Virus record (IMG/VR): IMGVR_UViG_3300037843_000309
Reading direction: 5' to 3' (one strand)
Length of the DNA stretch: 64,000 nt
Source: an uncultured virus (IMG/VR IMGVR_UViG_3300037843_000309)
Lineage: Duplodnaviria; Heunggongvirae; Uroviricota; Caudoviricetes
Positions 1,046 through 64,000 of this stretch are shown piece after piece. Position 1 is the stretch's first letter, and every line of letters starts with the position of its first letter. A model generated the notes under the pieces. It was not told the DNA's origin. It saw nothing but the letters and a program-made list of their open reading frames with translations, and searched no databases. A program made the translations under genes and the position numbers.

Positions 1046-1390
1046 ATGTTTGTCGCTGGAGCAACGCGGTTGGTATGGATCTCAAAGAAATATGCGGTCA
1101 AGGTTCCGCGCCCTTCTAGGTGGAGGCTTTTGCTGTGTGGACTGCTGGCCAACATGCAGGAGGTTGAATTTTCTCAAGCAGGGTGGCCAGAGCTTTGTCC
1201 TGTTCTATTTTCGCTTCCGGCTGGCTTACTTGTTGTCATGCCACGTTGCGAGACGTTGGGAAGAGCAATGGGAAGTGTTGAGTTTGAAGCTTTCACAAAA
1301 AAACAAGACTATGTGGTTCCGGTTGAGAACAAGCCTGATTCGTTTGGGTGGTATGAGGGCCAAATCGTGGCGATCGACTATGGATCGTAG
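1046..1390 (+). CDS. Small protein-kinase-like-fold protein (114 aa)
   Basis: Motifs in kinase order: GATRLV, YAVKVP, NMQE, LVVMPR, ENKPDSFG, IDYG. RBS-like GGAAGGA upstream. Confidence 0.5.
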   Translation: MFVAGATRLVWISKKYAVKVPRPSRWRLLLCGLLANMQEVEFSQAGWPELCPVLFSLPAGLLVVMPRCETLGRAMGSVEFEAFTKKQDYVVPVENKPDSFGWYEGQIVAIDYGS

Positions 1391-1414
1391 TACAGGGCCT
1401 GCACTGGAAACTTT

Positions 1415-2629
1415 ATGGCAGTGACGCAACAACCCACTTACGACTTCCCGATGCCGAACTCGACAAGCATCGAGGACAAGAGCGGCAAGAGGCACGTCGT
1501 CACCGACTACACCTCGCTGACCAAAGTCCTTCGGCGCATGCAGCAGGACTTGAACACCCTTTCCGGGCGCAGCAACAACATGAAGGCGCAAGGCCCCACT
1601 GACATGGGAGGGTACCACGTCAAAGGGGCGGTGAATTCGCCTTCGCCCACCTCGGATGAGCTTGTCACCTACGGACTTTTACAGGCAGTTGCTTCTCCGG
1701 CCGCTCTCCGCAAGGCAATTTCGATTCTCGGACAGACCCAACTCAACGTACAAGGGATGCACGGCCTCTTGGCCGACCCGCAAACCCCGCTTTTGACCGT
1801 TCCGGGGAACTCTGGCTCCATAAAGAAATCCTCTGGCTCCATAAAGAAATCCTCTGGCTCCGATCTCGGTAGTTTCGTTGGCCAGATTCAACATCTGACA
1901 GGAATTCTTCAATACTGGAACGGGTCTGCATGGGTTCCCATCACTGCGAATGGGTCACTCGTTTACGGCACGCGTGCGAATACCCCCGCGCAGCCTCAGT
2001 CGGCCTCGATTACCTACTACAACACCGATTTCAACTGGGAATACTACTCGAACGGCGCAAACTGGATATTTGAAGCGGGAATCTGCATTGGTACCGACGC
2101 GAAACGCCTCACCGTCACCCCCGGAACCGGCATCGCCAACTGGTCGCTTGGCAATCCTGGCAACAACTATGTGGTGGGGGACACGGTTACAGGCCCCGGT
2201 GGGTCAACCTTTACTGTCGCCTCCATCACTGGGGCGCTCACCTCTGGACCTATCGCAACACTCACCCCGCTTACCGCAGGAACCGGATGCACGGTTGTAA
2301 ATGGAGCCAGCCTCACCGGCGGCAGCGGCTCGGGCGCAACCATCAACGTGCTCACCCTGTCGGACGATGGCGCCGTGTTCATTACGACCGACACCCTGCA
2401 AATCTGGGCCATCATCGCTGGCGCGTGGGTCAACATCACGCCGAATTATTCTTCAACTCCAGCAGGAACGAGTATACTGTCTTTTATTCCCGGTGTTGAG
2501 GGGGATGCGGGCGTGGCCAACACGGCCTACCTCAATACCGCGAAGTACAATGCCGGGTTTTTGCAGCAGGAGCAATCGGGCGGGTTTGTTCCGACGCCTG
2601 AGACTCCAGACTTTCTGAGAGGGTATTAG
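1415..2629 (+). CDS. Tail fibre/virion protein
   Basis: Gly/Thr-rich. Contains 'LQYWNGSAWVP' and 'NPGNNYVVGDTVT...GGSGSGATINV' motifs typical of tail fibres. Confidence 0.55.
   Translation: MAVTQQPTYDFPMPNSTSIEDKSGKRHVVTDYTSLTKVLRRMQQDLNTLSGRSNNMKAQGPTDMGGYHVKGAVNSPSPTSDELVTYGLLQAVASPAALRKAISILGQTQLNVQGMHGLLADPQTPLLTVPGNSGSIKKSSGSIKKSSGSDLGSFVGQIQHLTGILQYWNGSAWVPITANGSLVYGTRANTPAQPQSASITYYNTDFNWEYYSNGANWIFEAGICIGTDAKRLTVTPGTGIANWSLGNPGNNYVVGDTVTGPGGSTFTVASITGALTSGPIATLTPLTAGTGCTVVNGASLTGGSGSGATINVLTLSDDGAVFITTDTLQIWAIIAGAWVNITPNYSSTPAGTSILSFIPGVEGDAGVANTAYLNTAKYNAGFLQQEQSGGFVPTPETPDFLRGY
1810..1861 (+). repeat. 21-bp tandem duplication (about 2.5 units) encoding SGSIKKS
   Basis: CTCTGGCTCCATAAAGAAATC repeated directly. 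Confidence 0.9.
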
Positions 2630-2631
2630 CC

Positions 2632-3414
2632 ATGCTTTCACCACAAGCGCTGTTTCGCGGTCTTGTTGCCCGCCTGCTTCCGACACGGAACGTCGATTCG
2701 CAATCTTCCGACGTCGCGGCACGCATGGGTCCATACGGCGAAGTGGATGTGCTCTCCTACGTCCGCAAGGCCCATCTGCTCGCTGACGAAGGGAGTTACT
2801 TCGTCACAACCAACGGGCAGGCTGGAATCTCGGCTGGGAACGCCAACAACACTTTCACCGCTACCGCCCCTTTCATGGTTATCGAGAACCTCGATCAAGC
2901 CGGTGGTAAGAGCGTGAACCTGGATTACATCAATCTTATTACCACTGTGGCAGCAAATTCCGCTGCTGGAGCCCTCACTTACATTGGAATCATCGGCATC
3001 ATCGACCAAGGACTCCGGTATACGAGTGGCGGGACGGCCCTCCCCACGCCCGTCTGTCCCAACATGAACATCATCGCAGCGCGATCGGTTACTGCGGCCT
3101 ATTTCGGCGTCATCACCGCGAGCGGCCAAACCGCCTCGGCCCGCCAAGTGTGCGGCATGCGCCTATTCCGTGCGTGCAATAATAACGTCGGAGATGCAGT
3201 GGGGGAGCAGAAGTTCATCAATTTCGGTGGCGTCGAGGGAATCGCTCCAACCTCTTACGGAGGGAACGCGAATGCCGTCAACTGCCTCGAAATTCCGATG
3301 CCTCCGGTCATCATCGGCCCACAGCAAAGCGCCCTGTTCTACCTGTACTCGGCCGGGAACAACACGAACACGCCGGGCAATTTTATTCCCGACATTGGCG
3401 TTTTCGAGAGGTAA
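2632..3414 (+). CDS. Probable virion protein
   Basis: 260-aa beta-rich ORF immediately after the tail-fibre-like gene. Confidence 0.45.
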   Translation: MLSPQALFRGLVARLLPTRNVDSQSSDVAARMGPYGEVDVLSYVRKAHLLADEGSYFVTTNGQAGISAGNANNTFTATAPFMVIENLDQAGGKSVNLDYINLITTVAANSAAGALTYIGIIGIIDQGLRYTSGGTALPTPVCPNMNIIAARSVTAAYFGVITASGQTASARQVCGMRLFRACNNNVGDAVGEQKFINFGGVEGIAPTSYGGNANAVNCLEIPMPPVIIGPQQSALFYLYSAGNNTNTPGNFIPDIGVFER

Positions 3415-3449
3415 TAGTTAGTGCAGGGCCTGCACTGAGAAAAAACTAC

Positions 3450-3478
3450 TTGACACCACACGGTTCCCTCTCTATCCT
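3450..3478 (+). promoter_or_regulatory. sigma70-like promoter
   Basis: TTGACA-17 bp-TATCCT. Confidence 0.6.
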
Positions 3479-5358: not shown

Positions 5359-5679
5359 ATGCCCGATGATGTCGACACTTCTCAAGACACCAGTAGTGGT
5401 GACAGTGGGAGTTCAGGGATAGCCCAGCGAATCGCCAAGGGGCTTGGCGGGATGAGCCGAAGTTCCAATGACTCGGCGCAGAAAAGCCGCGATTCCGCTG
5501 ACCAGTCGATCGAGGATGTCGGCCGCGCCGCCGAAGGCTTCCGCAACACAGCCGCACAGCGCCTCGGGAGTTTCAAGAAGGGCGGGAAGGTGAAGCGTAC
5601 CGGGACGTATAAACTTCATGCCGGAGAAGAAGTCCTCACGAAGCGCCAAGCCAAGCGCATGAAGTCCAAGCGGGCGTAA
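5359..5679 (+). CDS. Small virion-associated hypothetical protein
   Basis: GAGGTG RBS. Promoter-like TTGATT-17-TACTAT at 5313-5341. Motif FKKGGKVKRTGTYKLHAGEEVL. Confidence 0.55.
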   Translation: MPDDVDTSQDTSSGDSGSSGIAQRIAKGLGGMSRSSNDSAQKSRDSADQSIEDVGRAAEGFRNTAAQRLGSFKKGGKVKRTGTYKLHAGEEVLTKRQAKRMKSKRA

Positions 5680-5751
5680 TGCAGGCCCTGCACTGAAATT
5701 TACCCTTGATTTTGACCTCTCTGCGGTATAGCCTCACGGGGAGGTCTATCT

Positions 5752-6294: not shown

Positions 6295-7068
6295 ATGCCT
6301 GACAACCTTTCAGCCAACCCTTTTCCGAATCCGTATCAACAACCGCCCCAACAGGAAACTTCTCCGCCCGTTGGTGCTGGCGGGAGAACCAATACCCTTA
6401 TGGGTGTGATGGCTCTCTTGAAAGGGGTTCGCAAGGGGTACCAGCAGCGCCAAATCAACCAGTACAACACTCTTGAGTGGGGGTGGCAGGCTGCGCGCAC
6501 GGTGCGGGACAACCTCGTCAACACCATCAAACAAAATCCCGGCGGGGTTCCGACCAAAGAACAGGCAGCGCAACTCGACCAGTACCAGAAGGCGCTCGAC
6601 GAATCGGCTGACAAGCTGCACACGTTCACCATGCCGAAGGCGAGCACGGGGGGTAATGGAAAAAAAGACCCTGCAAAGCAGAAACTCCAAAACGTGGGGA
6701 ACCTGCTCAAGCGCATGTTGCTTGGACCCAAGATATCCTTTCCCCAATTCCCAGGAGGGTCGGTGCCACCGGCAACCGGCGGCGGAACGCCAAATAATCT
6801 CCCCCCTGGGGTAACGCCTTTCTCTCCGGCGCCACCATCGCCGCAAGGCGGAGCGCCTAGTGCAGGATCTGCACAGGTTCCGAGCGCTCCGCCGCCTAAC
6901 ATTCCGCCAACTCCGGTATCAACCGGAGGTCCGCAGGTTGGCGACGTGGTAATCGACCCTGCCACGCAAAAGCAGATGAAGATCACCTCGGTAAATCCGC
7001 CGCAGTGGGAGCCCGCAACTCCTGCGGGACAGGCGGGACAAACTCCCCGTTTTGGGGAACGATTTTGA
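6295..7068 (+). CDS. Probable internal virion protein, Pro-rich
   Basis: Tandem ORF with RBS, Pro-rich linkers. Confidence 0.5.
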   Translation: MPDNLSANPFPNPYQQPPQQETSPPVGAGGRTNTLMGVMALLKGVRKGYQQRQINQYNTLEWGWQAARTVRDNLVNTIKQNPGGVPTKEQAAQLDQYQKALDESADKLHTFTMPKASTGGNGKKDPAKQKLQNVGNLLKRMLLGPKISFPQFPGGSVPPATGGGTPNNLPPGVTPFSPAPPSPQGGAPSAGSAQVPSAPPPNIPPTPVSTGGPQVGDVVIDPATQKQMKITSVNPPQWEPATPAGQAGQTPRFGERF

Positions 7069-7080: not shown

Positions 7081-8058
7081 ATGTCAACACCGATTCCATA
7101 CCCTCTTGAGTCGCTGAAAAAAGCTCCGCCGCAACCTGGTGCAACTCCGTCCACCCCCAAGGCCACGCCGAATTCAACTTCCATCCCCGCAAGCGTGTTT
7201 CAGGGTCCGCCAAAGGTGGACGCTCCCGCCAGTGCAGGTGCTGCACCGCCGAAGCAGGCGGAAGCCACAATCCCACCTCCCCCGCCATCGCCGCAGGCGT
7301 ACCCCGGCCTTCCCAAGAACTATCAGGAAGCCTACGAGCGCGAGGGGAAGCTGGACTGGGAAGAACGCCAGCAGCGGCTTGCAACCGGACGCTCCGGGGC
7401 GGAGCGTGAAAGCATTAGCCTTGAAGAGGCGCGCGACACGCAAAAACGTCGTAAGGAAGCGGATGCGGCATACCAAGCCTACAGGGACAACCCAACCGAG
7501 GAAAACTGGAAAGAGGTTGAGCGGGCGGTAAGCGTTGCCTCTGGCAAGTTCATGCCGCGCGGGCCACAGTACAGGCCCAGCAAGTACGAAATCGACCTGC
7601 ATGGCATGGCCGGAGTGCCGGTGGGTATCCCGTACTCGGAAATGAACGATGAGCAAAGACGCAATTACGATATGGCGGCGGCGGTGGGAGCGCGCCAGAA
7701 CCAGCAGAAAATTAAGGATTCCATCCGCCACATGGACGTGTTGATTGCGAATGCCGGTAGTGGTTCGGGGACGAAGGCAGACAAGGAATACCGCTCGTAT
7801 CGTTACCGGGCGCTAAAAACTCGGCTCGCAAGCATCCAATCCGACCTCTATGCGATTCAGAACAGCAAGACGACCGGCGTCGATGACGTAGTGGGGAAGA
7901 TTGCCGAACTCAACGACCAGCGCGAAAAGGTGGAAAAGGAAATCGACGAGATTCAGAATCTCGCGGTGAGTGGGACAGTCCCATCCTCCGCTGGACACGT
8001 ACTGGGAAATAAATATCTTGGGAAGTATGGGGTAGCACCAGCGCCTGAGAAGAAGTAG
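7081..8058 (+). CDS. Probable internal virion protein, coiled-coil
   Basis: Tandem ORF with RBS, Pro-rich N-terminus and coiled-coil C-terminus. Confidence 0.5.
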   Translation: MSTPIPYPLESLKKAPPQPGATPSTPKATPNSTSIPASVFQGPPKVDAPASAGAAPPKQAEATIPPPPPSPQAYPGLPKNYQEAYEREGKLDWEERQQRLATGRSGAERESISLEEARDTQKRRKEADAAYQAYRDNPTEENWKEVERAVSVASGKFMPRGPQYRPSKYEIDLHGMAGVPVGIPYSEMNDEQRRNYDMAAAVGARQNQQKIKDSIRHMDVLIANAGSGSGTKADKEYRSYRYRALKTRLASIQSDLYAIQNSKTTGVDDVVGKIAELNDQREKVEKEIDEIQNLAVSGTVPSSAGHVLGNKYLGKYGVAPAPEKK

Positions 8059-8067: not shown

Positions 8068-11000
8068 GTGCCGACCGATACCGCACAGAACCCGATCATC
8101 GACAAGGTTCGCAACGACCCTGAGTTCTATTCGTTGCCCGCTGACGCGCAGCGCCACGTTTGGGGAACCCTCGACCCCGAATTCAAGTCCCTCCCGCTAA
8201 GTGACCAGGACTACGTCCTTCGCCAACTTCAGAGCGATTACTCCACGCGCAGCAGCGCGCGCTCCGCCCTCCTGAAGAAGCAGGGGTACAAACCCGAGCA
8301 AGTCGAAATGCTCATCTCCGGGCGCGACAAGAATGCGCGGCCGGTGGCCCCCGGCGCGAAGCCCAGTGCAGGCCCTGCACCAGCACAGCCTGTCGCGGCG
8401 CATGCGCCCTACATTCCTCCGCCTCCGCCTGTTTCATCCGAACAGCCGTTCCGGATTGGTATGGGGGCTGAGGTTCCTGTCCTTGAGCAGACCTCGCAGG
8501 CGGTACGGCGGGATCAACCAATGATTCCTGCCAGCGAAGCGGTTGCTTCTGCCGGAAAACTCCCCGACTATGCGACTACTCCACTAAAAGCTGTTGTTGG
8601 TATGGGGGGAGGCCTTGCCGACATCGTCAGCACACTCAGTAAACCATCCAATCTAGGGCTCCTAGCCGGAGCCATGATGACACCGTGGACCAGCATTCCG
8701 CGCATCATCAAGATATTGACCTCTCTAGGCTTTTCCTATGTTAATGCCAAGGGTGCGGCTGAAGATTTTGTAAAAGCGTACCAAGCTTACGAGCGTGGGG
8801 ACACACAGGAATTGTCCCGATACGGAACTGCCGGTCTAGTGCAGGCCTTGTTTTCGTATAAGGCCGCCAGTGGAGCCGGAAAAACAACCAAAGAAGCGGT
8901 TGAAGCTGCAAAGCGCGGTGGTGGCGGCGGTGGAGGGAAATCTCCCACCACTCCACCCGGTGGAACCACCCCAATTCTCGACGACATTGTTGCTCAGGAA
9001 GAAGCAAGGCTTCGTTCCGATATTGACAAATTGAAACCAGAAGATCGGTTGCCCGGCATCAACAACATCATCGACCAGACCCAAAAACAGCTTGATGCCG
9101 CAGGGAAGTCTCTGGCGGCCGCCAAATATCGCGCCACCCTGCAAGCAGCAAAGGCTATTGCCGACCAGCTTCTGAAAACCCCCGGGCAATTGAATCCGAA
9201 GGGTGCCGCTGGCAAAGGTGCAGCGGGTGGTGGTGGCGGAGGCGCCGCTCCAAAGGCGGAAGAAACCCCTGAGAAGAAGATCGAGTTTGTCGAAGGCCCC
9301 AACGGAACCTTGCAGATTGTCGAGGTTGAGGTTAAACCCGAAACGGAGGGCGCAAAGACTCCCCCGGGCGCTCCGCCTCCCACGACAAAGACTCCGGTGC
9401 AGGAATTCGACCTCCAAACGCTTGCGGGTCGGCAGCAATTTTTCAACCTGCCACCGGCGCAGGCGGCCAAACTTCCCGATAAGTTCTGGAAAGAGTGGGT
9501 GAAAGGCCAAGTCCCGGGTCATCCCGCGATTGCAGCCGCCACCAAGCTTCGCGAGGAAGCCAAGAAGCCCGCTGGCCCAGCAGGCCCACCCCCGGGCGAA
9601 GCCACACCCGAAGCGATTACCGCCGAGAAGCTCCGCATCTCGACCCTTTTGGATCCCCAAGCGGAAACCAAGGACAGCATCGCCCAGGTACAGGCCATCT
9701 CGAAGCAGGCGCTCACCGACATGGAGAACGCCCGGGCCAAAGGCGACTTCGAGGCGATGGCGAAGCACCAGGCAACCGGGAAAGCGGCAATCGAGGTCAT
9801 TAAGTCCCTGCAAACCCCGGCGGGAAGGCGCAAGCGCGGCGAGAAGCCAAAAACTGAGGCTCCGGCCCCGGCAACCACGCCAACTCCCGAAACGAAGCCT
9901 ACGACCCCTGCTGCGGAAGCGCCAAGGGGTCAGATTTCGACGCAACCGCCCGAGGTGCCACCAACCCCTATACCAGAACCGGCTCCCGCCCCGCCCGAGG
10001 CACCCCCCGAGCGCCGCGGGAAGGGGCGTCCGGACATCGAGGGGATGGCGGATCCCGACCTTCAGGCGTTTGTGACCGGCCTCACGCAGCGCCAGCGCGT
10101 CGGCCCCGCCCTCACCCCCCGGGAAGAGGCGATGCTGGCACAGGGGAAGGCGGAACTGGACAAGCGGGAGAAGGCAGCTCCGCCGGAAGCCCCCGGAATT
10201 GTGTCTCTGCGGGAAAACTCCAAGAAGCACGTTGACGACTTGGCAAAAGAAGGTACGGTCATCCCGTCCAATATCATTGTTGATTCTGTGTGGGGGAGGG
10301 ACAAGAACGGGAAATGGTCGCTTCGGGTATTTGACGAGTCCAGTGACCCGACGTTTGGCCGAGCACTTCCCATTGAAGTTGGCCCCGGCGATGACGTTGC
10401 GGAAATTGTAAAGGCGGCACAGGAAAAACAGCCGAAGGCTCCCTCACCTGCCCCCAGTGCAGGCCCTGCACTGGCTCCGCCCGTCTCACCCGAACCCCCC
10501 GGCGTCTCGCCCAAGCCACCTTCCGTCTCAGGGGGAGGGGGAACCGTCTCACCATTGGCTGACACATCATCTGAGCAGGAACTCCCGGCTCATATACCCG
10601 AAGGGCTACCGCCCACCGGGCCTGCGGCTACCAGTGTGGAAACGAAAGATTCATTGGCTCCGTTTGGCGTTGATGTCGAGGTAAAGTTCCCGCCATCTCA
10701 GGAAACAAGGGGTGGACTCGCTAAAGCGTCACGGAATCCTATCCTGAAAAAGCAGTTCAAGCGGCTTGGAATTACAGGTTTTTCCATCGAAGAACCGTAC
10801 AAATTCGATCTGTCGGAACAGGGGAATATCGAGCGCGGAACGGGTGTTATTCGGTTGAATGCGATAGCTGATGACCCCGAACAGACCCTCGCCCATGAAC
10901 TCGCCCACGACATTTACGAGCGCCTTGACCCGGTGGTACAGGCGCGAATGCGCGACTACATTGAATCCAATCACATCGAAGCGCAACACGCTGGCGGGAT

Positions 11001-14700: not shown

Positions 14701-14734
14701 CGCCAGTGCAGGCCCTGCACTGGAAAAAATCCAC

Positions 14735-16332: not shown

Positions 16333-16365
16333 CTCATCCTCAGTGCAGGTCCTGCACTGGCTCTG

Positions 16366-22099: not shown

Positions 22100-22300
22100 G
22101 CGATTTCTCCCTCGTGCGAACACATCCGATACTTTCGTGCTTTTCCCGGCATTCAGGATTTTCACATATGTAAATTGAGAGATGGTCGTAAACAAGGCAG
22201 AAGGGGCATCGATACGTCGTCTTTTTCTTGCATCCCACGCATATCGCCATCTTCGATTTCATCCCGCCCCTCCCTCCCTTTTCTCAGTGCAGGTCATGCA

Positions 22301-22513
22301 CTAGCAGCGTCCGTTTGATCTTTCCCAATCGTCGCTGCGCAGTATTTCCCGCACTTCTTCGTATTTTTCCATAACATAAAAACCTTCCGATTCGGGCCAA
22401 TTTTTCATATAGATGGTTGTGTTCCATGCAAGATTCCGAGCGGGAGAAATTGCCGCCACGGCGTCAGAGGCTACTGAAATTTTTTGTTTATGATAATTCG
22501 TGAATTCAACCAT
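22301..22513 (-). CDS. Hypothetical protein
   Basis: MVEFTNYHKQ..., translationally coupled to the upstream gene. Confidence 0.45.
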   Translation of the reverse strand: MVEFTNYHKQKISVASDAVAAISPARNLAWNTTIYMKNWPESEGFYVMEKYEEVREILRSDDWERSNGRC

Positions 22514-46071: not shown

Positions 46072-46096
46072 TGCAGCACCTGCACTGGGAGGGGCG

Positions 46097-46309: not shown

Positions 46310-47073
46310 CAGAACCAAAAATCTCGTTGATTCACACCACGGTCAGGCCGGAGCGCTACTTCCGCATGGCGGAGTGTTGGGCGCGGCGAGCCGATAACCC
46401 CTCGATCGTCGAGCATTGCTTCACCTACGTCCCTTCGGCGTTTGAGGGGGTTGAGGTGAAGAGTCCCTTCGCAAACTTCCTGCACGCTCCCGACCGCGAG
46501 CCGGGAGACCCTGTTCGGCCATCGCTTGTGCAGGCGACCAATAAGGCGGCGGGGTTCTCGACGGGGAAATTCCTTGTCCTCACCTGCGACGACCTTTTCC
46601 CGCCCAAGCACTGGGATACCGACGTGCTCGCGGCGATTGGCGACCTCGATCAACCCAAAGTGTTGTGGGTGCGCAACGTGGCCTACGTCCCTCAGGGGTA
46701 CGTGACGCTGTGGCACCACCTCATCTGCCAGCCCATGATGACACGCTCCTACTACCAGCGCTACGGGTACTTCGTCCCCCCTTGGTACCTTGCCCGCTAC
46801 ACCGACATGGAGTTTACGGTGCAGGCGCAGCGCGACAATGTTATCGTTGACATGCGGGAGAAGTTGCTTTTCGAGCATCAGGACTCTCACCCGGCCTATG
46901 AGCCCGACGACACGTACCGCGAAGCGTGGGCGCAGCGCGTGAAGCCACAGGACGAGTTCGATTGCTCGACGTACCATGCTCGGGCGGCGAAGAATTTTCC
47001 GAGGGAGTGGCCAATCCCAACGCTAGCAGGGTTCGATGTCAGTGCAGCACCTGCACAGGAGGTGAAGGCGTGA
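46306..47073 (+). CDS. GT2-like glycosyltransferase
   Basis: KISLIHTT.RP, ATNKAA...G.FLVLTCDDLFPP..WD, Y.DME, FEH..HP. Confidence 0.75.
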   Translation: MTEPKISLIHTTVRPERYFRMAECWARRADNPSIVEHCFTYVPSAFEGVEVKSPFANFLHAPDREPGDPVRPSLVQATNKAAGFSTGKFLVLTCDDLFPPKHWDTDVLAAIGDLDQPKVLWVRNVAYVPQGYVTLWHHLICQPMMTRSYYQRYGYFVPPWYLARYTDMEFTVQAQRDNVIVDMREKLLFEHQDSHPAYEPDDTYREAWAQRVKPQDEFDCSTYHARAAKNFPREWPIPTLAGFDVSAAPAQEVKA

Positions 47074-47519: not shown

Positions 47520-48400
47520 CTCAAGACGAAATCCTCAATCTCAAGCGCAAGGCGAACTGGGTGCGGCGCACGGTACTCGACATGGCGGTGCGCGCACAGT
47601 CGGGCCACGTCACCACAGCGTTCTCGCTGACCGAGATGTTTGTAGCGCTCTACCACGGCATCCTGCGTTTCGACCCGAAAGACGTCAAATGGCCGGGCCG
47701 CGACCGCTTCATCCTGTCCGAGGGGCAGGCGGGGATCGGCCTCTACCCGGTGCTGGCGGACGCGGGATTCTTTCCGGTGGATGAACTCAAGAACTTTGTG
47801 CAAGAAGGAAGCCACCTGGGGGTACATGCGGAACCGCAGATTCCCGGCATCCAGGTGCTTACCGGGTCGCTTGGCCATGGCCTCCCCATCGCGACCGGGA
47901 TGGCGGATGCGGGGAAGGTGGACGGAGCCGACTGGATGGTGTTATGTCTGGTGGGCGACGGCGAGTTGTGCGAGGGGTCGAATTGGGAGGCGCTCATCAC
48001 GGCATCGACGCTCCGCCTCAACAACCTCGTCGTCATCGTCAACCGTAATCACCAGTTCACGATTGGGTTCAACGACCGGCGGGAGACGCAGCGGGATGTG
48101 TACCTCGACCCGATTCCCGATAAGTTTCGGTCTTTCGGGTTCGACGTGTATCGAATCGACGGCCACAACTTCGAGGAAATCGACCAAGCGTTTGGCAACA
48201 TCCGTGAAGTTTCCGCCCACGCCGCAAGGCCCCTCTGCATCATCGCGGAAACCGAAAAAGGTCACGGCGCAGTCGGCATCGCAGGCCAGCGCATGTGGCA
48301 CTACCGGGTTCCGGCGGGGGACGATTTGAAGCGGATTATGGACGGGCTTGACGCCGAGGCGGTCGAACTGGGGTGTGCAGCACCTGCACTGGAGAGATGA
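47516..48400 (+). CDS. Transketolase-like TPP enzyme, N-terminal subunit
   Basis: SGH, RDRFILSEG, TGSLGHGL, TPP motif GDGELCEGSNWEA...N, IDGHN, TEKGHG. Confidence 0.9.
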   Translation: MTQDEILNLKRKANWVRRTVLDMAVRAQSGHVTTAFSLTEMFVALYHGILRFDPKDVKWPGRDRFILSEGQAGIGLYPVLADAGFFPVDELKNFVQEGSHLGVHAEPQIPGIQVLTGSLGHGLPIATGMADAGKVDGADWMVLCLVGDGELCEGSNWEALITASTLRLNNLVVIVNRNHQFTIGFNDRRETQRDVYLDPIPDKFRSFGFDVYRIDGHNFEEIDQAFGNIREVSAHAARPLCIIAETEKGHGAVGIAGQRMWHYRVPAGDDLKRIMDGLDAEAVELGCAAPALER

Positions 48401-49678: not shown

Positions 49679-50281
49679 ATGATAAATGAGGCGGTCATCC
49701 TGTGCGGGGGACTGGGCACGCGGCTGCGAAGCGTCGTATCCGACCGTCCGAAGTGCATGGCGGAAGTGGCGGGGAAGCCATTTCTTGAGCACGTCGTTGG
49801 GCATCTTCGCGGGCAGGGGATTTCGAGGGTTCTGTTCTGTATCGGGTATATGGGGAGTGACATCTACAAGCACTTCGGCTGGATAGGGGAAGGGATGGAA
49901 TTCGATTACTCTATCGAAGAATCCCTCATGGGAACCGGGGGGGGGTTACGGCATGCTTTTCCCGACATCCAATCCAATACAGTCTTAGTTCTAAATGGCG
50001 ACACGTATTGCGAATTCAGCCTAGAAGTCCTCGAATACTGGCACTTGAAATGGAATGCTTTCACTACCCGCGTAATGTACGAAGGTCTGAGCGCCGGGGT
50101 TTATCTCATGCAGCGGAGAATCATCGAGATGATCCCGCAGGGACGACCTGTGTCTCTGGAAAAGGAATTCCTGCCATCGTTTTTCGTCCACCAAGTTCAC
50201 ACTGCGATGCCATTCCTCGACATCGGAACGCCAGAGCGCTACGCAGCGGCAGAAGAATTTCTAGTGCAGCACCTGCACTAA
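49679..50281 (+). CDS. hddC: Sugar-1-phosphate nucleotidyltransferase (HddC-like)
   Basis: AVILCGGLGTRLRSVVSDRPKCMA.V.GKPFL, GTGG, LNGDTY, SLEKE, FLDIGTPE.Y. Confidence 0.8.
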   Translation: MINEAVILCGGLGTRLRSVVSDRPKCMAEVAGKPFLEHVVGHLRGQGISRVLFCIGYMGSDIYKHFGWIGEGMEFDYSIEESLMGTGGGLRHAFPDIQSNTVLVLNGDTYCEFSLEVLEYWHLKWNAFTTRVMYEGLSAGVYLMQRRIIEMIPQGRPVSLEKEFLPSFFVHQVHTAMPFLDIGTPERYAAAEEFLVQHLH

Positions 50282-50288: not shown

Positions 50289-51275
50289 TTGATGCGAGTT
50301 CTCATCACAGGCATCACGGGAATGGTCGGAAGCCACTTGGCCGACTACATCCTCGCGAATCACAAGGCGGTGGATGTTCATGGGTTGATTCGCTGGCGCA
50401 GCCCACTCGACAACATCCGTCACATTCAAGGACGCATCTCCCTCCACCAGGCCGAACTCCGCGACCTAAACTCGCTCATCGTCCTGCTTCGGAAGGTAAA
50501 GCCCGAATGGATTTTCCACCTCGCCTCGCAGTCCCAGGTGGATGCGAGTTTTCTCGCGCCCGCCGACACGATTCACACCAACGTCATCGGCACCGTCAAC
50601 CTGCTCGATGCGATCGGAATTGCAGGAATAGACCCAAAAGTCCACGTTTGCAGTTCGTCGGAAGTTTACGGGCAGGTGAGCGAGAACGAAATTCCGATTC
50701 GGGAGACAAACCCCTTCCGGCCGGCGAGTCCCTATGCGGTGTCAAAGGTGGGTGAGGACATGGCCGCGTACCAGTATTTTCTCTCCTACGGGATCCAGAC
50801 GGTCAGAACGCGGATGTTTACGCACACCGGCCCGCGCCGCGGCGACTTCTTTGCCGAAAGCGCTTTCGCCAAGCAGATTGCGCAAATCGAGGCAGGACTC
50901 GAGTCCAACCCTGTCATGGTCGGAAATCTTGACAGCGTGCGTACGTTCTGCGACGTGCGGGACGCGGTGAGGGCATACTGGATGCTCATGGAGAAGTGCC
51001 CGGCGGGAGAGGTTTACAATATCGGTGGGACCCGCACAATGACGGTGGGAGAGATGCTGGAGATTTTTAAGGGGATGGCAAGGGTCAAGATCACCCATAA
51101 GGTCAGCGCTGGCTTGCTTCGCGCATCTGACGTCACCCTGCAAATTCCTGATACATCGAAGTTTCAGTCGGTTACGGGATGGGAACCAGAAATCCCGCTT
51201 GAGACAACGCTTCGCGATCTGATGAACTATCACAGGGACAAGATTCGCGCCGAAGGAGTTTCTGGAAACGCATAG
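50289..51275 (+). CDS. GDP-sugar 4,6-dehydratase (Gmd/GDP-heptose dehydratase-like SDR)
   Basis: LITGITGMVGSHL, HLASQS, SSSEVYG, PASPYAVSK, FTHTGPRRG, GNLDSVRT. Confidence 0.9.
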   Translation: MMRVLITGITGMVGSHLADYILANHKAVDVHGLIRWRSPLDNIRHIQGRISLHQAELRDLNSLIVLLRKVKPEWIFHLASQSQVDASFLAPADTIHTNVIGTVNLLDAIGIAGIDPKVHVCSSSEVYGQVSENEIPIRETNPFRPASPYAVSKVGEDMAAYQYFLSYGIQTVRTRMFTHTGPRRGDFFAESAFAKQIAQIEAGLESNPVMVGNLDSVRTFCDVRDAVRAYWMLMEKCPAGEVYNIGGTRTMTVGEMLEIFKGMARVKITHKVSAGLLRASDVTLQIPDTSKFQSVTGWEPEIPLETTLRDLMNYHRDKIRAEGVSGNA

Positions 51276-51302
51276 TGCAGGTCCTGCACTGAGGGGGAAA
51301 CG

Positions 51303-51698: not shown

Positions 51699-52705
51699 TT
51701 ATTACTCGCACCCCATTTCGCATCTCGTTCGTTGGTGGAGGGACGGACTATCCGGCATGGTACCTCGAGCACGGCGGAGCGGTGCTCGGAACCACCATCA
51801 ACAAGTACTGCTACATCAACTGCCGGTACCTTCCCCCGTTCTTTGGGTACAGGTTCCACATCGTGTGGTCGAAGAACGAGGTTTGCAGCACGGTCGATCA
51901 AATTACCCACCCGGCGGTGCGCGAGGCGTTGCGCTTCATGGGAATTGAGCGCGGGGTCGAGATTCACCACGATGGCGACTTGCCGGCGAGGAGCGGGATC
52001 GGTTCGAGTTCCGCCTTCACCGTGGGGTTGCTGAATGCTCTCTACGGCCTAAAAGGCCAAATCGCTACGCCGCGGCAACTGGCGATGGACGGAATCCACA
52101 TCGAGCGCGATTTGCTCAAGGAGTCGGTCGGGTCGCAAGACCAGGTGTCGGTCGCCTACGGCGGACTCAACAAAATCGTGTTCGCTCCGAGCGGGGAAGT
52201 CAGCGTGCAGCCGATTACGCTTACGCACGCGCGCCGGGAAGAATTTGAGAGCCACCTGCTGCTGCTCTACACCGGGATCGACCGCACGGCGTCGGACGTC
52301 GCCAAAGGGTACGAGTTCAAGGATAGCGATATGCAGGAACTTCGCAAGCTGGTAGATGAGGCGGTTTACGTTCTTTGCGAAGGGGACCTTCTGGACTTCG
52401 GATGGTTGCTTAGTCGGGGGTGGGAGATAAAGCGGAGCATGAGTAAGGCAGTTTCCAACCCCCAGGTCGAAGAGATGTATTCCGAAGCCATTCGCGCCGG
52501 AGCCTTTGGCGGGAAGCTGATTGGCGCGGGCGGAGGCGGGTTCATGTTGCTGTTCGCGAAGCCTGCCGACCAGAAGCGGATTCTGTTTCGGCTCAACAAG
52601 CTGGTGCATGTGCCGTTCAAATTCGAGTACGCTGGAAGCCAAACCATTTTTTTCGAGCCGGAAGAGGACTTTTCCAGTGCAGGTGCTGCACTAGGAGATA
52701 AATGA
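51695..52705 (+). CDS. hddA: GHMP sugar kinase, heptose-7-phosphate kinase-like
   Basis: IITRTPFRISFVGGGTD, DLPARSGIGSSSAF, GSQDQ..AYGG, GGKLIGAGGGGF. Confidence 0.85.
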   Translation: MIITRTPFRISFVGGGTDYPAWYLEHGGAVLGTTINKYCYINCRYLPPFFGYRFHIVWSKNEVCSTVDQITHPAVREALRFMGIERGVEIHHDGDLPARSGIGSSSAFTVGLLNALYGLKGQIATPRQLAMDGIHIERDLLKESVGSQDQVSVAYGGLNKIVFAPSGEVSVQPITLTHARREEFESHLLLLYTGIDRTASDVAKGYEFKDSDMQELRKLVDEAVYVLCEGDLLDFGWLLSRGWEIKRSMSKAVSNPQVEEMYSEAIRAGAFGGKLIGAGGGGFMLLFAKPADQKRILFRLNKLVHVPFKFEYAGSQTIFFEPEEDFSSAGAALGDK

Positions 52706-55404: not shown

Positions 55405-56309
55405 CGCCATTTGAATTCGAGGTCGTATTTGGAGAAGCGCTTGCCAAGCTGGCGCGGAAGCTAATCGAAGAGTACGGGTTCGAGTATACTTTGATCGAAA
55501 AGGAAGAGAGTGATGCTTGGATTCATCAGGAATTCCGACATTTAGAGGACGACATTATCCCAACGGCTGGCGAACACAGACTGGCTAAGTGGGAGGACGG
55601 CTGGAAAGAGAATTTGGAGGCCTTCAAGGCAAACCCGGATCCCGCCTCGCTCATTCCCCAATATTTCTATAAGGATAGGGTCAATCGGTGGAGAGGGGAG
55701 TTGATTCGCCCGGCCAAAGTTCTTTTTGAGTACCACGCCCTGTGCGCTATCGAGGACTGGATTTTCGGGAAGTATCTGTGTGATGTGGATTCGATTTACG
55801 AGTTCGGGTGTGGGACGGGACACAACCTCCTGCGGGCAAATCGACAAAATCCCAAAGCGTGGCTGTGGGGACTCGACTGGACGGAAACCTCATGGAAGAT
55901 TATTGAGGAAATGGTCGTGGCAAGGTTTTTGGATGGGGCTTGCGGTGGAAAGTTCGATTTCTTCGCTCCCGATCCCCACCTCCGATTGTCGCCAAATAGC
56001 GGCGTCTACACCGTCGCGGCATTGGAGCAGGTGGGGACGCGCTTCGCCCCGTTCGTCGAGTGGCTCATCGCGCAGCGCCCCAAGGTTTGCGTCCACATCG
56101 AGCCCATCATTGAACTTTTGGACGAGCGGAACTTGCTCGATCGCCTGACGATGGCCTACATGAAGAAGCGGAACTACCTTTCGGGATTCCTCCCCTACCT
56201 GCAAGAGCAGGAGAAGAAGGAGAGGATCGTGATTCACAAGGCGCAGCGCACGCACATCGGGGGCCTGTTTACGGAGAGCAATTCGGTGGTGGTGTGGTCG
56301 CCGCGGTAG
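55392..56309 (+). CDS. Class I SAM-dependent methyltransferase
   Basis: IYEFGCGTGHNL, GLDW, FDFF.P, ALEQ, HIEP. Confidence 0.8.
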   Translation: MPALTPFEFEVVFGEALAKLARKLIEEYGFEYTLIEKEESDAWIHQEFRHLEDDIIPTAGEHRLAKWEDGWKENLEAFKANPDPASLIPQYFYKDRVNRWRGELIRPAKVLFEYHALCAIEDWIFGKYLCDVDSIYEFGCGTGHNLLRANRQNPKAWLWGLDWTETSWKIIEEMVVARFLDGACGGKFDFFAPDPHLRLSPNSGVYTVAALEQVGTRFAPFVEWLIAQRPKVCVHIEPIIELLDERNLLDRLTMAYMKKRNYLSGFLPYLQEQEKKERIVIHKAQRTHIGGLFTESNSVVVWSPR

Positions 56310-56336
56310 TGCAGGACATGCACTGAGGAAATAGGA

Positions 56337-56795: not shown

Positions 56796-58771
56796 AAACA
56801 GTCGGCTTGGTTCAAATCAACAACTCGTTTAGCGGGCAGAGCTACTTCCCCTACTCCGTCGGGGTGTTGCAGGCTTATGCCCAGAGGCACCTGCCGAACC
56901 CGGGCGACTTCAAGTTCCTCATCCCCATCTTCGAGCGCATCCCGGTGGAGAAGGCGGTCGAGCACCTGGCGCCGGCTGACATCGTGGGATTCAGCGCCTA
57001 CGTGTGGAATTTCCGGTTGTCTCTCGCCATCGCGCGCGAACTCAAGCGGCTCCGACCAGAAACCCTCATCGTGTTTGGCGGCCCCCAGGTGCCGAACTAT
57101 CCCGACAAGTTTATGGCGGAGAATCCTTTCGTGGACGTGGTGGTGCATAGCGAAGGGGAAAAGCCGTTCACTCAGATACTTGAAAACCTTGAAACTCGGG
57201 ATTGGAACGGTATCCCCTCGCTGAGTTATCGTGGCGCCGGAGGGTTGGTTCAAACCCCTCGCGTCGAGCGCATGCGGGATCTCGACAGCGTCCCCTCCCC
57301 CTACCTCGAAGGGACGTTCGACCCGCTCATGGAATCGCTTCCCGGCCGGAAGTGGATTGTGATTTGGGAGACGAATCGCGGATGCCCGTTTGGCTGCACG
57401 TTCTGCGACTGGGGCAGCAACATGCTCGCGAAGATCGGGAAATGGGGCTTGGAGCGCCTCAAAGCGGAAGTTGATTGGTTCGCGGAAAAGAAGATTTTCT
57501 ACGTGTTCAATGCCGACGCGAATTTCGGCATCCTGCCGCGCGACCTTGAAATCGCGGAGTACTTTGTCGCCACAAAGAAGCGGACGGATTACCCCTCGAA
57601 ATTCTCCGTCCAGAACACCAAGAGCACCACGCGGGACGCGATGGAAAAGTCGTGGCGCGTACAGAAAGTTCTTTCGGATGGGGGACTCAACCAGGGCGTG
57701 GTCGTGTCGATGCAGTCGCTTCACCCGCCGACCCTTGCCGCCATCAAGCGCGACAACATGAAGCCGGAATTCTTCAAGGAGATTCAGGAGCGCTTCACGA
57801 AGGGTGGGGTTGAGACGATGTCTGACCTCATCCTGGGATTGCCGGAAGAAACCTACGACTCGTTTGTGCGGGGGGTATCGAGCCTCATCGAGGGCGGGCA
57901 GCACAACCGCATCCAGTTCCAGAACCTATCGATCTTGCCGAACGCGGAGATGGGGGACCCGGCCTATCAGGAGCGGTACGGGATGGAGATGGTGACGTCC
58001 CGTATCGTCAATATCCACGGGTCAAAGGCTCAGGACGACGAGGTTCCCGAGATACAGCAACTGGTAATCGCGACCAAGGCGATGCCCCGCGCCGACTGGG
58101 TAAGGACGCGGGCGTTCGCGTGGTGGGTGAGCCTGCTGCACTTCGACAAGGTGCTTCAGGAGCCTCTGGTGCTGTGCCATGAATTTACGAGGCTTCCATA
58201 CCATATCCTCATTGAACTTTTCTCTGAGGAAGGAACTTTCCCGGAGTCAAGATTCCCTGAGATCGGTCGCCTGCGAAGGTTCTTCAGGGACAAGGCGCGT
58301 GACATCCAGAACGGCGGAGAGGAGTACTGCCACTCGAAAGACTGGCTCGATATTTGGTGGCCAGCCGATGAGTACGCGCTCATCCAAATGACTGTGGATG
58401 AAAGGCTTGGGGAGTTTTATGGGGAAGCGGAGAGAATTCTTTCCGCCGTTTGCTGCCATGGATTCCTTCGACCAAAATTCATTTCTGATTCCGTATTTCT
58501 GAGTCAGTCACTCCTAAAGCGTCCGTTCCAAACGGACGACTTAACCATCGTGCTTTCGTTGAGCGTGAGAGAACTTCACCGCATGGCCGTCGAGGGGAAG
58601 AGAGTTACGTTGCACACTGGTCAGTTCACCTACCGCATCGACCGCACCTCGGAGCGGTGGGACACATGGAATGACTGGTTCGAGCGCGTCATCTGGTGGG
58701 GAAACAAGCGAGGGGCGTATCAGTATAGTGCAGCACCTGCACTGGAGGTTGACCATGGCAACAATTCCTAA
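56792..58771 (+). CDS. B12-binding radical SAM enzyme
   Basis: PYSVGVL, GFSAYVWN, VFGGPQ, ETNRGCPFGCTFCDWG, DANFG, LILGLPEET. Confidence 0.9.
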   Translation: MKTVGLVQINNSFSGQSYFPYSVGVLQAYAQRHLPNPGDFKFLIPIFERIPVEKAVEHLAPADIVGFSAYVWNFRLSLAIARELKRLRPETLIVFGGPQVPNYPDKFMAENPFVDVVVHSEGEKPFTQILENLETRDWNGIPSLSYRGAGGLVQTPRVERMRDLDSVPSPYLEGTFDPLMESLPGRKWIVIWETNRGCPFGCTFCDWGSNMLAKIGKWGLERLKAEVDWFAEKKIFYVFNADANFGILPRDLEIAEYFVATKKRTDYPSKFSVQNTKSTTRDAMEKSWRVQKVLSDGGLNQGVVVSMQSLHPPTLAAIKRDNMKPEFFKEIQERFTKGGVETMSDLILGLPEETYDSFVRGVSSLIEGGQHNRIQFQNLSILPNAEMGDPAYQERYGMEMVTSRIVNIHGSKAQDDEVPEIQQLVIATKAMPRADWVRTRAFAWWVSLLHFDKVLQEPLVLCHEFTRLPYHILIELFSEEGTFPESRFPEIGRLRRFFRDKARDIQNGGEEYCHSKDWLDIWWPADEYALIQMTVDERLGEFYGEAERILSAVCCHGFLRPKFISDSVFLSQSLLKRPFQTDDLTIVLSLSVRELHRMAVEGKRVTLHTGQFTYRIDRTSERWDTWNDWFERVIWWGNKRGAYQYSAAPALEVDHGNNS

Positions 58772-59307: not shown

Positions 59308-59916
59308 AAAAGATTGGACGTCCACTACGCGAAATCACCGTCGAGCCGCTGGAGATGCCGGCGCCGCTACGAAGAGAGGTTCCCGATGCCGAACCCCAAC
59401 GAGTCGATAGTCCTCAGACGCCCCAAACGGTACCGGAAACCACGCCGCAACGCACTGCAAAAGTTGACGGGGAACCGCGCTCGCCTGGCATTCCAGTACC
59501 GGGTGATGCGGGAGTGTATTGCGGACCTGTTCATGGGTGGGATTCTCGAAAGACCCGTTGCGTCGAAGACTATTTCCGGGATTGATGAGTTGTACCGTCT
59601 GGAAGTGAAGGCGATAGATCAACGGGAAGAGTACCAGTCCCGGGTCCGAGCGATTCGCGGGTACGTCGAGGCGTCAGAGCGGGAGCAGCCGTTCGAGCCG
59701 GTTAGCAGTTTGCTTGAGGAATACAATGAGCGATGACATTCATGTAATCCGAGGGGTGGCGCGCGAACTCTCATCGGGGAACATCGCGAACGTCTACAAG
59801 GCGCACGACCGCATTGCGTCGGCCCTCAATTTCGCCGCCGATTCCATCGAGCGCCTCGAACATGAAGTTGCGGAACTCAAGAAGGGTAGTGCAGCACCTG
59901 CACTGAAAGGGAAACC

Positions 59917-62707: not shown

Positions 62708-62792
62708 CCCCTGCGCCTCCGGTCAGTCGCGGAGCGGGGTTGGGTGGTTGCCGGACCTGATGTTCCAACCCTGCGCGTATTAAGGAGAAGCC

Positions 62793-62993
62793 ATGAAGTT
62801 CCTTGGGGATAGAATCCAGATGACGCTGCGGTACCCGGTTGGACTCAAGGAAACCCTTGAGCGCCGCGCCGCAGCGATGGGCATCAGCGCGAATGAGTTG
62901 ATTTGCAGTGACGTGGAGCGCGGGAACAAGAACTTCGAGCGCCAGAACGGCGGAGAGGCGGTGAAGAGTGGAAGTCGCAAAACTCATAACTGA
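62793..62993 (+). CDS. Arc/RHH-like DNA-binding protein
   Basis: MTLRYPVGLKETLERRAAAMGISANELI. AAGGAG RBS. Confidence 0.65.
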   Translation: MKFLGDRIQMTLRYPVGLKETLERRAAAMGISANELICSDVERGNKNFERQNGGEAVKSGSRKTHN

Positions 62994-63459
62994 GATCGTT
63001 ATCTGTCTCGCTCTGGTGGTTATCGGCGGGGGGCTGCTGGGGACGGTGGTTTGGCTGACGCTCCGCCTGAAAGAGGCGATTGAGGCGCTCACCGCCATCT
63101 GCGAACTCTTTGAGAAGGTCATTGACAACGAAGCGGCAGTTGCGGCGAGCGCCGATGAGATGGCGGCGGCGGTAGGGGGGTTCAAGGCGACCGTTTCCGA
63201 GGATCTCAAGGCGGTGAAAGAGGCTGAGATGGCCCTCATTCGCATTGTGGCGAGCAATATCGTCACCCTCAAGGGGTTGTCGAATGTGGTGTCGGTGTTC
63301 GAGAAGAACCTGCTGGATGCCATCCCGAACCGGGAGAAGAAGAACTACGACGTGTCGCCGGAGATTGCGGGACTCAGCAAAGAACAACAAGAGGAACTCG
63401 AAGCGGCCGAAGTGTTGAGGGTGCAGACGGCGCGCGCCCCGGAGATCATCGCGACGTAG
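62968..63459 (+). CDS. Membrane-anchored coiled-coil protein
   Basis: N-terminal TM segment followed by helical repeats. Confidence 0.55.
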   Translation: MEVAKLITEIVICLALVVIGGGLLGTVVWLTLRLKEAIEALTAICELFEKVIDNEAAVAASADEMAAAVGGFKATVSEDLKAVKEAEMALIRIVASNIVTLKGLSNVVSVFEKNLLDAIPNREKKNYDVSPEIAGLSKEQQEELEAAEVLRVQTARAPEIIAT

Positions 63460-63468
63460 GAGGTTACT

Positions 63469-63876
63469 GTGGAAAAAGGCAGGCGAGGTTTTCTAAAATG
63501 GCTAGGGGTTGGTGGGGTAGCGGGAGCGGCATCAATTCTCCCGACTGGTGCAGTTCAACCTCAAGAGAAAGAGAAAATTTTCCTCAAGCATGTCTGCGAT
63601 TGCGGAAAAGAAATTGAGATTGAGGTTCCAAGTATTGAAGGAACAGAGGTCTACCTTTCCTGCGGTTCGTGCGGGCGCGCTCATTCCCTTCTATGGTCGG
63701 AGGGGGTGTTCAAGAACAGGCTCCAGTATTCAGGGGACACCTACGACACAAGTTGGATAACGCCTCTTGGCTCGGAGTGGAAAAACCTTCCCACCGTCGA
63801 AGCGTCGCCCAAAGAATTGGGTGTTGGGAAATGCCTTCGGTTCGATCCGGAAACAGGCAAGGAATCGGAAAGATGA
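63469..63876 (+). CDS. Twin-arginine-like N-terminus plus Zn-ribbon protein
   Basis: GRRGFLKWLGVGGVAGAA; CDCG...CGSCG. AGGAGG RBS. Confidence 0.55.
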   Translation: MEKGRRGFLKWLGVGGVAGAASILPTGAVQPQEKEKIFLKHVCDCGKEIEIEVPSIEGTEVYLSCGSCGRAHSLLWSEGVFKNRLQYSGDTYDTSWITPLGSEWKNLPTVEASPKELGVGKCLRFDPETGKESER

Positions 63877-64000
63877 AGCACATCTCATGGCTGGAAGCTG
63901 CGCGCGACGTTGACTGTATTGCCTGCCGGGTTAATGGGCGAAGCGGGGTCATGGTGCGGGAGTTCTCGAAACCCTCGCATCCATCCGAGTGCAGGGGCTG

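Follow-up and report, generated by a model that had tools for sequence, protein, structure and literature searches.

Operator-like repeats dispersed through a phage genome have been described in several systems, and here we compare them with a 17-bp palindrome, AGTGCAG-N3-CTGCACT, which recurs along a 64,000-nucleotide stretch (hereafter, the window) of an uncultured tailed virus (Caudoviricetes, IMG/VR record IMGVR_UViG_3300037843_000309). As its candidate reader we propose the product of the open reading frame (ORF) at 24547-25467, a protein with a predicted DNA-binding domain of the ParB/KorB type. Pfam was run on 135 ORFs and PHROGs on 106, one tail-region ORF being left out and one scanned in part; integrase, ParA, transposase and recombinase were all absent from the 135 scanned ORFs. 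Palindromic repressor operators of similar length are known from phiC31, whose conserved inverted repeats occur in many intergenic copies, and from P22 (the Mnt operator); their readers are unrelated. Noc, a ParB-family relative, has the DNA-binding fold and palindromic targets. In ParB/Spo0J-parS, SopB and VirB a similar fold is combined with palindromic targets of 14-16 bp that vary with helix residues; the present system differs in having no CTPase domain, no ParA and sites that are dispersed instead of clustered at a centromere.

In print, the pattern is closest to the repeats of cluster O mycobacteriophages, for which the portion of the report available describes 34 copies of a 17-bp TGTTCGG-N3-CCGAACA, a predicted dimeric reader and a function given as unknown (PMC4351075). 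Both arrays have a 7-3-7 dyad in at least 30 copies, intergenic as well as coding, in a genome lacking integrase and parAB, and the cluster O repeat is reported there to be absent from the host genome. The sequence and the host are different, and the cluster O copies are denser at one genome end and not tied to starts. The initial annotation of the window had inferred an undescribed system, a word that overstates the novelty of the pattern, given that a very similar layout was already published; the link to a reader family, on the other hand, was not found in print, as no paper connecting a ParB-like protein without CTPase domain to arrays of this kind emerged from the literature searched (mostly outside subscription journals, and without supplements). 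Dispersed palindromic arrays had thus been seen in phages and left unexplained, and what is added here is a named candidate reader family.

Two further systems are relevant. According to the accessible text of the reports, stoperators of cluster A mycobacteriophages and of R4 number more than 20 sites genome-wide, at promoters and gene junctions, and whole-genome silencing has been proposed for them (PMC9283540, PMC10276819). The array described here, with 41 sites, 22 near stops and five before -35 boxes, is similar in number and placement. Stoperators, however, are asymmetric, oriented with transcription, bound by a monomer and found in integrating phages, whereas here the dyad has no orientation bias and the candidate reader a predicted ParB-like fold; a stoperator-type repressor was not among the fold matches listed for the reader model. 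KorB of RK2, in the part of the report available, forms a CTP clamp, slides, needs KorA and reaches distant promoters from 16-bp OB operators (PMC11790492). Common to both are a ParB-type DNA-binding domain (predicted in the phage protein), operators close to and far from promoters, and silencing, which is proposed for the phage array; the five sites before -35 boxes resemble proximal KorB operators. The phage protein, in contrast, has no N-terminal CTPase domain, and its sites occur every 2.3 kb on the phage. Among the hallmarks of the ParB/KorB CTPase family, the helix-turn-helix domain is predicted here, while the CTP clamp, the ParA partner and clustered parS were not found.

The palindrome and its placement

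Allowing at most one mismatch to GTGCAG-N3-CTGCAC, we counted 30 copies in the window (23 exact, seven with one mismatch), the same number at the same places as first annotated; 100 shuffles of the window gave 0.10 copies on average and never more than one. The whole record of 94,272 bp holds 41 copies, 32 exact and nine with one mismatch: the copy truncated by the window end is complete there (63989-64003), and ten further sites follow up to 91573. The spacer is strictly three nucleotides long (41 sites, against 0-2 at every other spacer from 0 to 8), and the outer A is present in 36 of the 41 sites and the outer T in 34. Among the pieces listed, sites 16343, 22287, 22973 and 26180 are covered with zero letter differences by contigs from two other runs of peat metagenomes, while a third run may itself be the source of this DNA. 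A related contig, L290, has the exact site at the same position in its HNH gene and breaks off 12 letters into a site near the end of its RecT-like homologue. The array is thus real, and these contigs rule out an assembly artefact, which would have left the motif absent elsewhere, a concern raised in the initial annotation.

The spacer reads G-N-C in 25 of the 41 sites, which extends the dyad to a one-nucleotide centre and makes hairpin closure impossible. A single tolerated substitution accounts for six of the nine mismatches, and where the spacer is the asymmetric CAC/GTG, neither strand is significantly preferred (nine against four, p=0.27). These three observations support a symmetric protein recognising double-stranded DNA over a hairpin, in line with the earlier preference for a dimeric protein over an RNA stem. 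Hairpins in RNA or single-stranded DNA (acting in processing, in pausing or as N4-like promoters), as well as recombination or restriction sites, are highly improbable. The palindrome contains the recognition sequences of BsgI and AlwNI, a point for restriction sites; many sites do lie between a stop and the next ribosome-binding site (RBS), and some indels are flanked by cluster O repeats in the accessible part of that report (PMC4351075). However, related phages also have spacerless dyads (GTCCAAATTTGGAC), which cannot close a loop, the flanks of the sites are unrelated past 2-3 bp from the palindrome, no recombinase is among the scanned ORFs, and CAG-N3-CTG is not enriched outside the array (19 against 19.3). 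The same flanks, together with the lack of a transposase, led us to reject REP/RAYT or another mobile palindrome. Outside the array, unpaired half-sites (GTGCAG/CTGCAC) are roughly twice as frequent as the Markov expectation (36 against 17.8 and 21 against 12.6, whole record) and are perhaps decayed or weak sites.

Beyond the record, the exact motif gave 71 stretches in IMG/VR, each on its own contig, and the exact 18-mer gave 29 single matches in GTDB with no more than one stretch per contig; five of the matching records were inspected and held one or two sites each. As both counts are at chance level, the palindrome is not a word common to viruses, nor is it a known motif of hosts. A host protein as the reader, one of the options initially put forward, is left unsupported by the GTDB result, and we regard it as very improbable. 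In its favour are a single intergenic copy in a Terriglobia contig (L090, 202-219), possibly there by chance, and the divergence of the phage's own candidate; against it, the Terriglobia genome with L090 has only two exact sites in 8.7 Mb, and related phages use different sites.

Placement was assessed with our own crude gene calls and our own promoter pattern. The centre lies within 30 bp of a stop in 22 of the 41 sites (null mean 3.8, maximum 13), in agreement with the concentration at gene junctions noted at the outset. Fourteen sites are 17-25 nt upstream of a start, just before the RBS (null rate 1.3%), and 14 are deep inside coding sequence, against 34 expected; coding sites often encode SAGPAL-type codons in proline-rich linkers. 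A TTGAC box is found 20-26 nt from the centre of five sites (3421, 5679, 14706, 40426 and 72211; p=9e-4). Of the sites initially said to precede promoters (3420, 5678, 14705, 35868 and 40425), four have this spacing, whereas at site 35869 the TTGAC-type box is farther off, at 39 nt. Sites are also spaced more evenly than by chance: the coefficient of variation (CV) is 0.60 against 0.96 in a junction-constrained null (p=1e-4), the widest gap is 6.3 kb against a null median of 9.5 kb (p=0.02), and density ranges from 0.26 to 0.63 sites/kb across all five functional blocks. We read the even spacing as selection for coverage, with sites placed where they are least costly. The sites and the genes concerned are the following.

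1389..1405, site, GTACAG variant; overlaps the stop of ORF 1046-1390 and precedes the start at 1415
3420..3436, site; core end 14 bp upstream of TTGACA (-35-like) at 3450
5678..5694, site, ATGCAG variant; overlaps the stop at 5679, promoter-like sequence next
6859..6875, site within ORF 6295-7068, Pro-rich linker (SAGSAQ)
7231..7247, site within ORF 7081-8058, Pro-rich linker (SAGAAP)
8365..8381, site within the 2210-aa ORF (SAGPAP)
10456..10472, site within the 2210-aa ORF (SAGPAL)
14705..14721, site after the stop at 14700; core end 14 bp upstream of TTGACA at 14735
16342..16358, site at the junction following the primase/helicase gene
20042..20058, site in the last codons of the SMC/Rad50-like gene (VQVLH, stop)
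21230..21246, site within the SMC/Rad50-like gene (VQALH)
22286..22302, site, ATGCAC variant, at a gene junction
22972..22988, site within the RecT-like gene
23761..24147, minus strand, ribbon-helix-helix (RHH)-like ORF, rival reader; counterpart in L290, no Pfam match at E<=1
24194..24550, minus strand, small HNH-like gene; located after the reader gene, as in G019, G020 and G021
24493..24509, site within the small HNH-like gene (VQVLH), exact in L290
24547..25467, minus strand, candidate reader, 306 aa; predicted ParB/KorB-type DNA-binding domain and RHH-like segment
25464..26078, minus strand, Mom-family gene between the reader gene and the duplicated reader 5' end
26066..26194, minus strand, 42-codon duplicate of the reader N-terminus, beginning inside site 26180 (VQHLHQ...; E 5e-4, E 8e-7)
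26179..26195, site where the start codon of the reader gene presumably lay originally
28666..28682, site within ORF 28467-28778 (SAGPAL)
33345..33361, site, GTGCAT variant, at a gene junction
35868..35884, site, GTACAG variant, after the stop at 35888; TTGACA 39 nt from the centre, minus strand
37159..37175, site, GTGCAT variant, intergenic
39312..39328, site upstream of the DUF7007 ORF or at its start
40425..40441, site in a divergent control region; core end 15 bp upstream of TTGACA at 40456
40463..40503, plus strand, CGTAGTAC in three direct repeats across the RHH 40534 promoter
40534..40950, plus strand, NikA-like RHH ORF, rival reader
46070..46086, site overlapping the stop at 46071
47041..47057, site in the last codons of the ORF ending at 47073; next RBS follows
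48374..48390, site in the last codons of the transketolase N-half gene; next RBS follows
50263..50279, site in last codons (VQHLH, stop); next RBS follows
51274..51290, site overlapping the stop at 51275
52676..52692, site in the last codons of the GHMP kinase gene; next RBS follows
56308..56324, site, ATGCAC variant; overlaps the stop at 56309, before the Dam gene RBS
58727..58743, site in the last codons of the radical SAM gene; next RBS follows
59888..59904, site in last codons, before the RBS of the Acb2/Tad1-like gene
62793..62993, plus strand, Arc-like RHH ORF, rival reader
63988..64000, site truncated where the window stops

The 2210-aa ORF (8068-14700), with two sites in its linkers, has no Pfam or PHROG match and is, judging by its position, probably an ejection protein.

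Related phages and the candidate reader

Searches for relatives with single proteins gave no match. A capsid alignment led to 80 IMG/VR loci; 26 of 28 records were taken (all except G017 and G028), G032 with 20 of its 21.5 kb. A record was counted as bearing an array if its palindrome count was at least two above the Markov maximum. Sixteen of the 26 records have their own dispersed palindrome of 12-16 bp, a figure that includes several near-duplicates and one record, G022 (GCCGGC), that is probably compositional. The palindromes are record-specific: GTGCAG-N2-CTGCAC, GTCCAAATTTGGAC, GTCCATATATGGAC, GTCCAACAGTTGGAC, GTAAACCNGGTTTAC, CGTCTCTATAGAGACG, ACTCCTATATAGGAGT and others. Spacing CV was below 1 in all 17 records tested (p<0.05 in seven). 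Site boundaries were common with G008 in four of seven cases and with three more distant records in one of seven, the background being 0.23. Such a phage-specific, fast-changing palindrome suggests that its reader is encoded by the phage. The closest capsid relative, G006 (L192-L193), has two spacer classes, GTGCA-N4-TGCAC and GTGCATTTACTGCAC, a possible transition state. Asymmetric second repeats are also present, GTTGCAGACTA 8-10 times (G013/G014; L217-L220, L280-L283) and CTAACATTCCC 15 times (G027; L252-L257), and these are possibly phage promoters.

A helix-turn-helix family of 240-275 aa occurs in ten of the 26 relatives, and eight of these ten pass the palindrome test. In G019, G020 and G021 its gene lies directly before a small HNH gene, the very position held by ORF 24547-25467. 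The profile of the window's group matches that of the relatives' group at probability 87.7 (E 3.4e-6), and a deep profile of 148 rows scores the window's protein at E 7e-22; the family comprises 4,073 clusters (50% identity) at E<=0.001. Four homologues with 55-63% identity, available as proteins only, start with MQHLH, MQDMH, VHDLH or MH, that is, with the site read in frame, and one of these homologues, encoded by contig L290, is 58% identical to the window's protein. A search for the loci of close homologues by peptide patterns and in viral contigs found none, and one 2.2-kb metagenome contig was obtained. The HNH cluster was dropped as a co-travelling gene, being a mix of unrelated HNH proteins. 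We consider it likely that the palindrome is read by a member of the ORF 24547-25467 family.

The fold was assessed on a domain model with a predicted local distance difference test score (pLDDT) of 95.7. In the window's protein the DNA-binding domain spans about aa 22-170, and an RHH-like segment lies at about aa 175-231. Four of the top five structural matches are ParB-family DNA-binding domains. These are 6s6h (Z 6.8, root-mean-square deviation (rmsd) 3.1 over 95), 1vz0 (Z 6.5, rmsd 2.5 over 87) and KorB (8qa8, Z 5.6; 1r71, Z 5.4), with VirB, SopB and P1 ParB lower; the four ranged over Z 5.4-6.8 and rmsd 2.5-3.8 over 87-97 residues. Residues 181-231 resemble the RHH of TraM (Z 6.0, rmsd 2.3 over 48). 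As only about 22 residues precede the region aligned to Spo0J 104-208, and neither the protein nor the 148 members match ParBc, the model predicts a ParB/KorB-type domain without the CTPase clamp. A deep-profile search of PDB sequences found nothing below E 0.09, and a viral fold library gave weak rows only, DUF3102 proteins among them. DUF3102 (PF11300) is weakly matched by seven of the 148 members (best E 4e-4), while the window's protein has no Pfam match; DUF3102 is mentioned in three papers, none of which, judged by title or abstract, deals with its function. The recognition helix reads R-x-A-x-Y where the boxes are TGCA, in both lineages (the relatives and the cultured phages below), and R-[STA]-x-[WYV] where they are TCCA/GTCC, independent cases being few.

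Several results weigh against this assignment. Foldseek, run with both models against PDB, found nothing at E<=0.001, and the Z scores above are middling. The window's protein has V-S-T-G-F-Y-Y where four close homologues have R-R-Q-A-F-Y-Y; it is the only row of a 15-row alignment without the conserved Arg, although its sites are strongly conserved, and its branch is 0.47 long against 0.11-0.18 for the homologues. Among the relatives, G024 has the reader gene and no detectable array, G023 the gene with a 10-bp array only, and G027, a complete record, lacks the reader gene and has 6-7 sites. Eight of the 16 records without a detected reader gene, most of them fragments, also pass the palindrome test, and in G011, G018 and G020 a distance of 2.7-4.2 kb separates the reader gene from the closest site. 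In the window, a Mom-family gene appears to have been inserted in the reader 5' end (25464-26194), separating the gene from its site. The copy may have acquired a different binding behaviour, or it may be in decay since the insertion; we hold it somewhat more likely than not that it still binds.

The initial annotation had instead named the RHH proteins at 24147, 40534 and 62793 as candidate readers, and such a protein would recognise the site as two TGCA boxes in the manner of CopG. The core is indeed TGCA-N5-TGCA, and the element bound by CopG is 13 bp long and covers two TGCA motifs (PMC3413123). A counterpart of ORF 24147 accompanies the locus in L290, site 40426 precedes the promoter of RHH 40534, and the diverged ParB-like copy in the window also speaks for another reader. 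Nevertheless, RHH 40534 has its own CGTAGTAC repeats, and no relative of it is detected in motif-bearing records; the search, which found it in none of 28 records, is uninformative for want of a positive control. The three RHH ORFs had no BLASTP match in the 26 relatives, a search by which short proteins are easily missed, and arrays in cultured phages tracked the ParB-like gene. The RHH proteins are thus less well supported, ORF 24547-25467 is the better candidate, and an RHH reader seems improbable to us. The CGTAGTAC repeats are likely the own operator of RHH 40534, apart from the palindrome lattice. The region 40337-40534, with divergent promoters, one lattice site and three CGTAGTAC repeats, resembles a separate autoregulatory switch.

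Arrays in cultured phages and control records

Homologues in cultured phages were sought by tblastn. P0220 and P0274 found them in 49 and 36 cultured phage records, while the window's protein, the G025 homologue and P0200 gave no match in cultured phages. Six cultured phages of five host genera were chosen by homologue alone, before their DNA was inspected, and five of them were represented by 50 kb each. Dispersed dyads with TGCA or GCA boxes were found in all six (null maxima 4-6): DLP5 has 35 sites in 96.5 kb and the other five have 9-15 in 50 kb. In four of the six, a site lies 75-144 bp before the reader homologue. Thus, the presence of the candidate reader family predicted arrays in six cultured phages, and the pattern of an uncultured phage can now be addressed in RcZahn, RHph_TM16 or DLP5.

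As controls, we used 16 of 24 viral records without the reader gene, mostly 40-60 kb each, among which one had a strong array and four were marginal. With a 60-kb limit and the scripted threshold, 13 of 17 gene-bearing records passed against five of 16 controls (Fisher p 0.015); under a stricter threshold, chosen afterwards, the numbers were 12 of 17 and one of 16 (p=2e-4). Three points temper this association. At the 60-kb limit, only seven of the 11 gene-bearing records on the relatives' side pass, and six at the strict threshold. The six cultured phages form one siphovirus clade, so that the test amounts to two lineages and not to 17 independent cases. Finally, control G002 (L299-L301) has 25 TTTCAC-N3-GTGAAA dyads in 60 kb and no reader-family member, which means that arrays have other readers as well.

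The DLP5 array appears unreported in the literature searched: it is unmentioned in the available text of the DLP5 announcement, under the terms searched in the DLP3 paper (PMC7326821) and in a 14-mer search of the literature. DLP5 itself is a phagemid (PMC5834331). For cluster O, 29.7 of the 69.8 kb of Corndog were examined, and gp122 (L291 28943-29665) matched the reader family at probability 25 (E 8e-4), in the N-terminal part only. On this similarity, gp122 is a weak lead as the cluster O reader, and its gene lies just downstream of a cluster O repeat. Corndog gp90, with a probability of 1 on the same scale, was rejected as a reader homologue.

Possible function of the array and its genomic context

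Tentatively, and with slightly less than even confidence, we favour static docking of the ParB/KorB-type protein at the 41 palindromes, repressing or roadblocking transcription of an integrase-less genome. A phage-encoded helix-turn-helix protein without a CTP clamp would bind the palindromes as a fixed dimer, and the docked dimers would repress promoters and block read-through genome-wide. The reader would also control its own gene through the site at that gene's start, and the symmetric sites would act on transcription in both directions, keeping an extrachromosomal genome quiet. A non-sliding ParB would need many fixed sites, which would explain why density and not position is conserved. 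Sites ahead of -35 boxes, and the one where the reader gene begins, are in keeping with a regulator, and early and late blocks are covered equally, as whole-genome quieting would require. We infer the binding, dimer state, autoregulation and function of the reader. Provided that the reader does belong to the ORF 24547-25467 family, repression or roadblock would be its rather probable main role. If true, this would add a non-sliding branch of ParB and give phages a second way of silencing their whole genome, and the natural helix/operator pairs could serve in studying specificity change. Against such a role, most sites are not at promoters, and the authors of the cluster O study, in the portion available, considered control of transcription initiation unlikely and recovered no lysogens (PMC4351075).

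The same reader could have a structural role instead, compacting, bridging or anchoring phage DNA so as to segregate a plasmid-like prophage or to organise the DNA during replication; the sites at promoters would then be secondary. The even coverage, which includes coding sites, agrees with this, as do the ParB-family fold with its long N-terminal helix and RHH-like segment, the turnover of site positions between relatives and the phagemid state of DLP5 (PMC5834331). On the other hand, CTPase domain and ParA are lacking, the spacing before the -35 boxes is fixed at five sites, and the site at the reader gene's own start suggests a regulator; we therefore judge a structural role unlikely. A protective or self-marking role, in which dimers every few kb stall DNA-scanning enzymes of the host such as type I/III restriction motors, SMC-type defences or exonucleases, or mark the DNA as self, is more doubtful still. 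It would account for selection on the maximum gap (6.3 kb against 9.5 kb, p=0.02) and the fast change of site sequence between relatives, and the phage has other anti-defence and DNA-modification genes, but a non-specific coat would do equally well, and the placement at promoters and start codons would be left unexplained.

Beyond the repression or roadblock favoured above, a broader scheme can be envisaged, which we hold to be speculative and rather unlikely. Phage genome-labelling would be widespread, with a clamp-less ParB whose recognition helix changes together with the phage-specific palindrome and which coats the genome every few kb. It would provide integrase-less phages with a symmetric code for silencing and self-recognition, would explain plasmid-like persistence (DLP5), and its ParB may be the missing cluster O reader.

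As to the phage itself, the first 266 bases of the record are repeated at its end with two mismatches. Pfam and PHROGs indicate a tailed phage with a P22-like portal, SU10-type adaptors and very large unannotated ORFs, and the genome includes a leftward replication block and a sugar/DNA modification cluster. Its capsid relatives sit in Acidobacteriota bins at six of nine GTDB loci, which points to that host phylum; the phage is probably a podovirus of Acidobacteriota.

The cluster at 46306-58771 comprises glycosyltransferase-like, nucleoside deoxyribosyltransferase, split transketolase, nucleotidyltransferase, GDP-mannose dehydratase, GHMP kinase, N6/N4 methylase, sugar epimerase, two B12 radical SAM and Dam genes, and could modify DNA or the virion. 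The anti-defence genes are Tad2-like (15450-15812) and Acb2/Tad1-like (59917-60129). In L001 2677-5865 (genome 65677-68865), site 68094 lies between a large terminase ORF and the next ORF, of 247 aa, which groups with the terminases of the relatives; the terminase is possibly split in two ORFs. The sole find of Rfam and ARAGORN was a tRNA-Lys(CTT) at 34253-34327.

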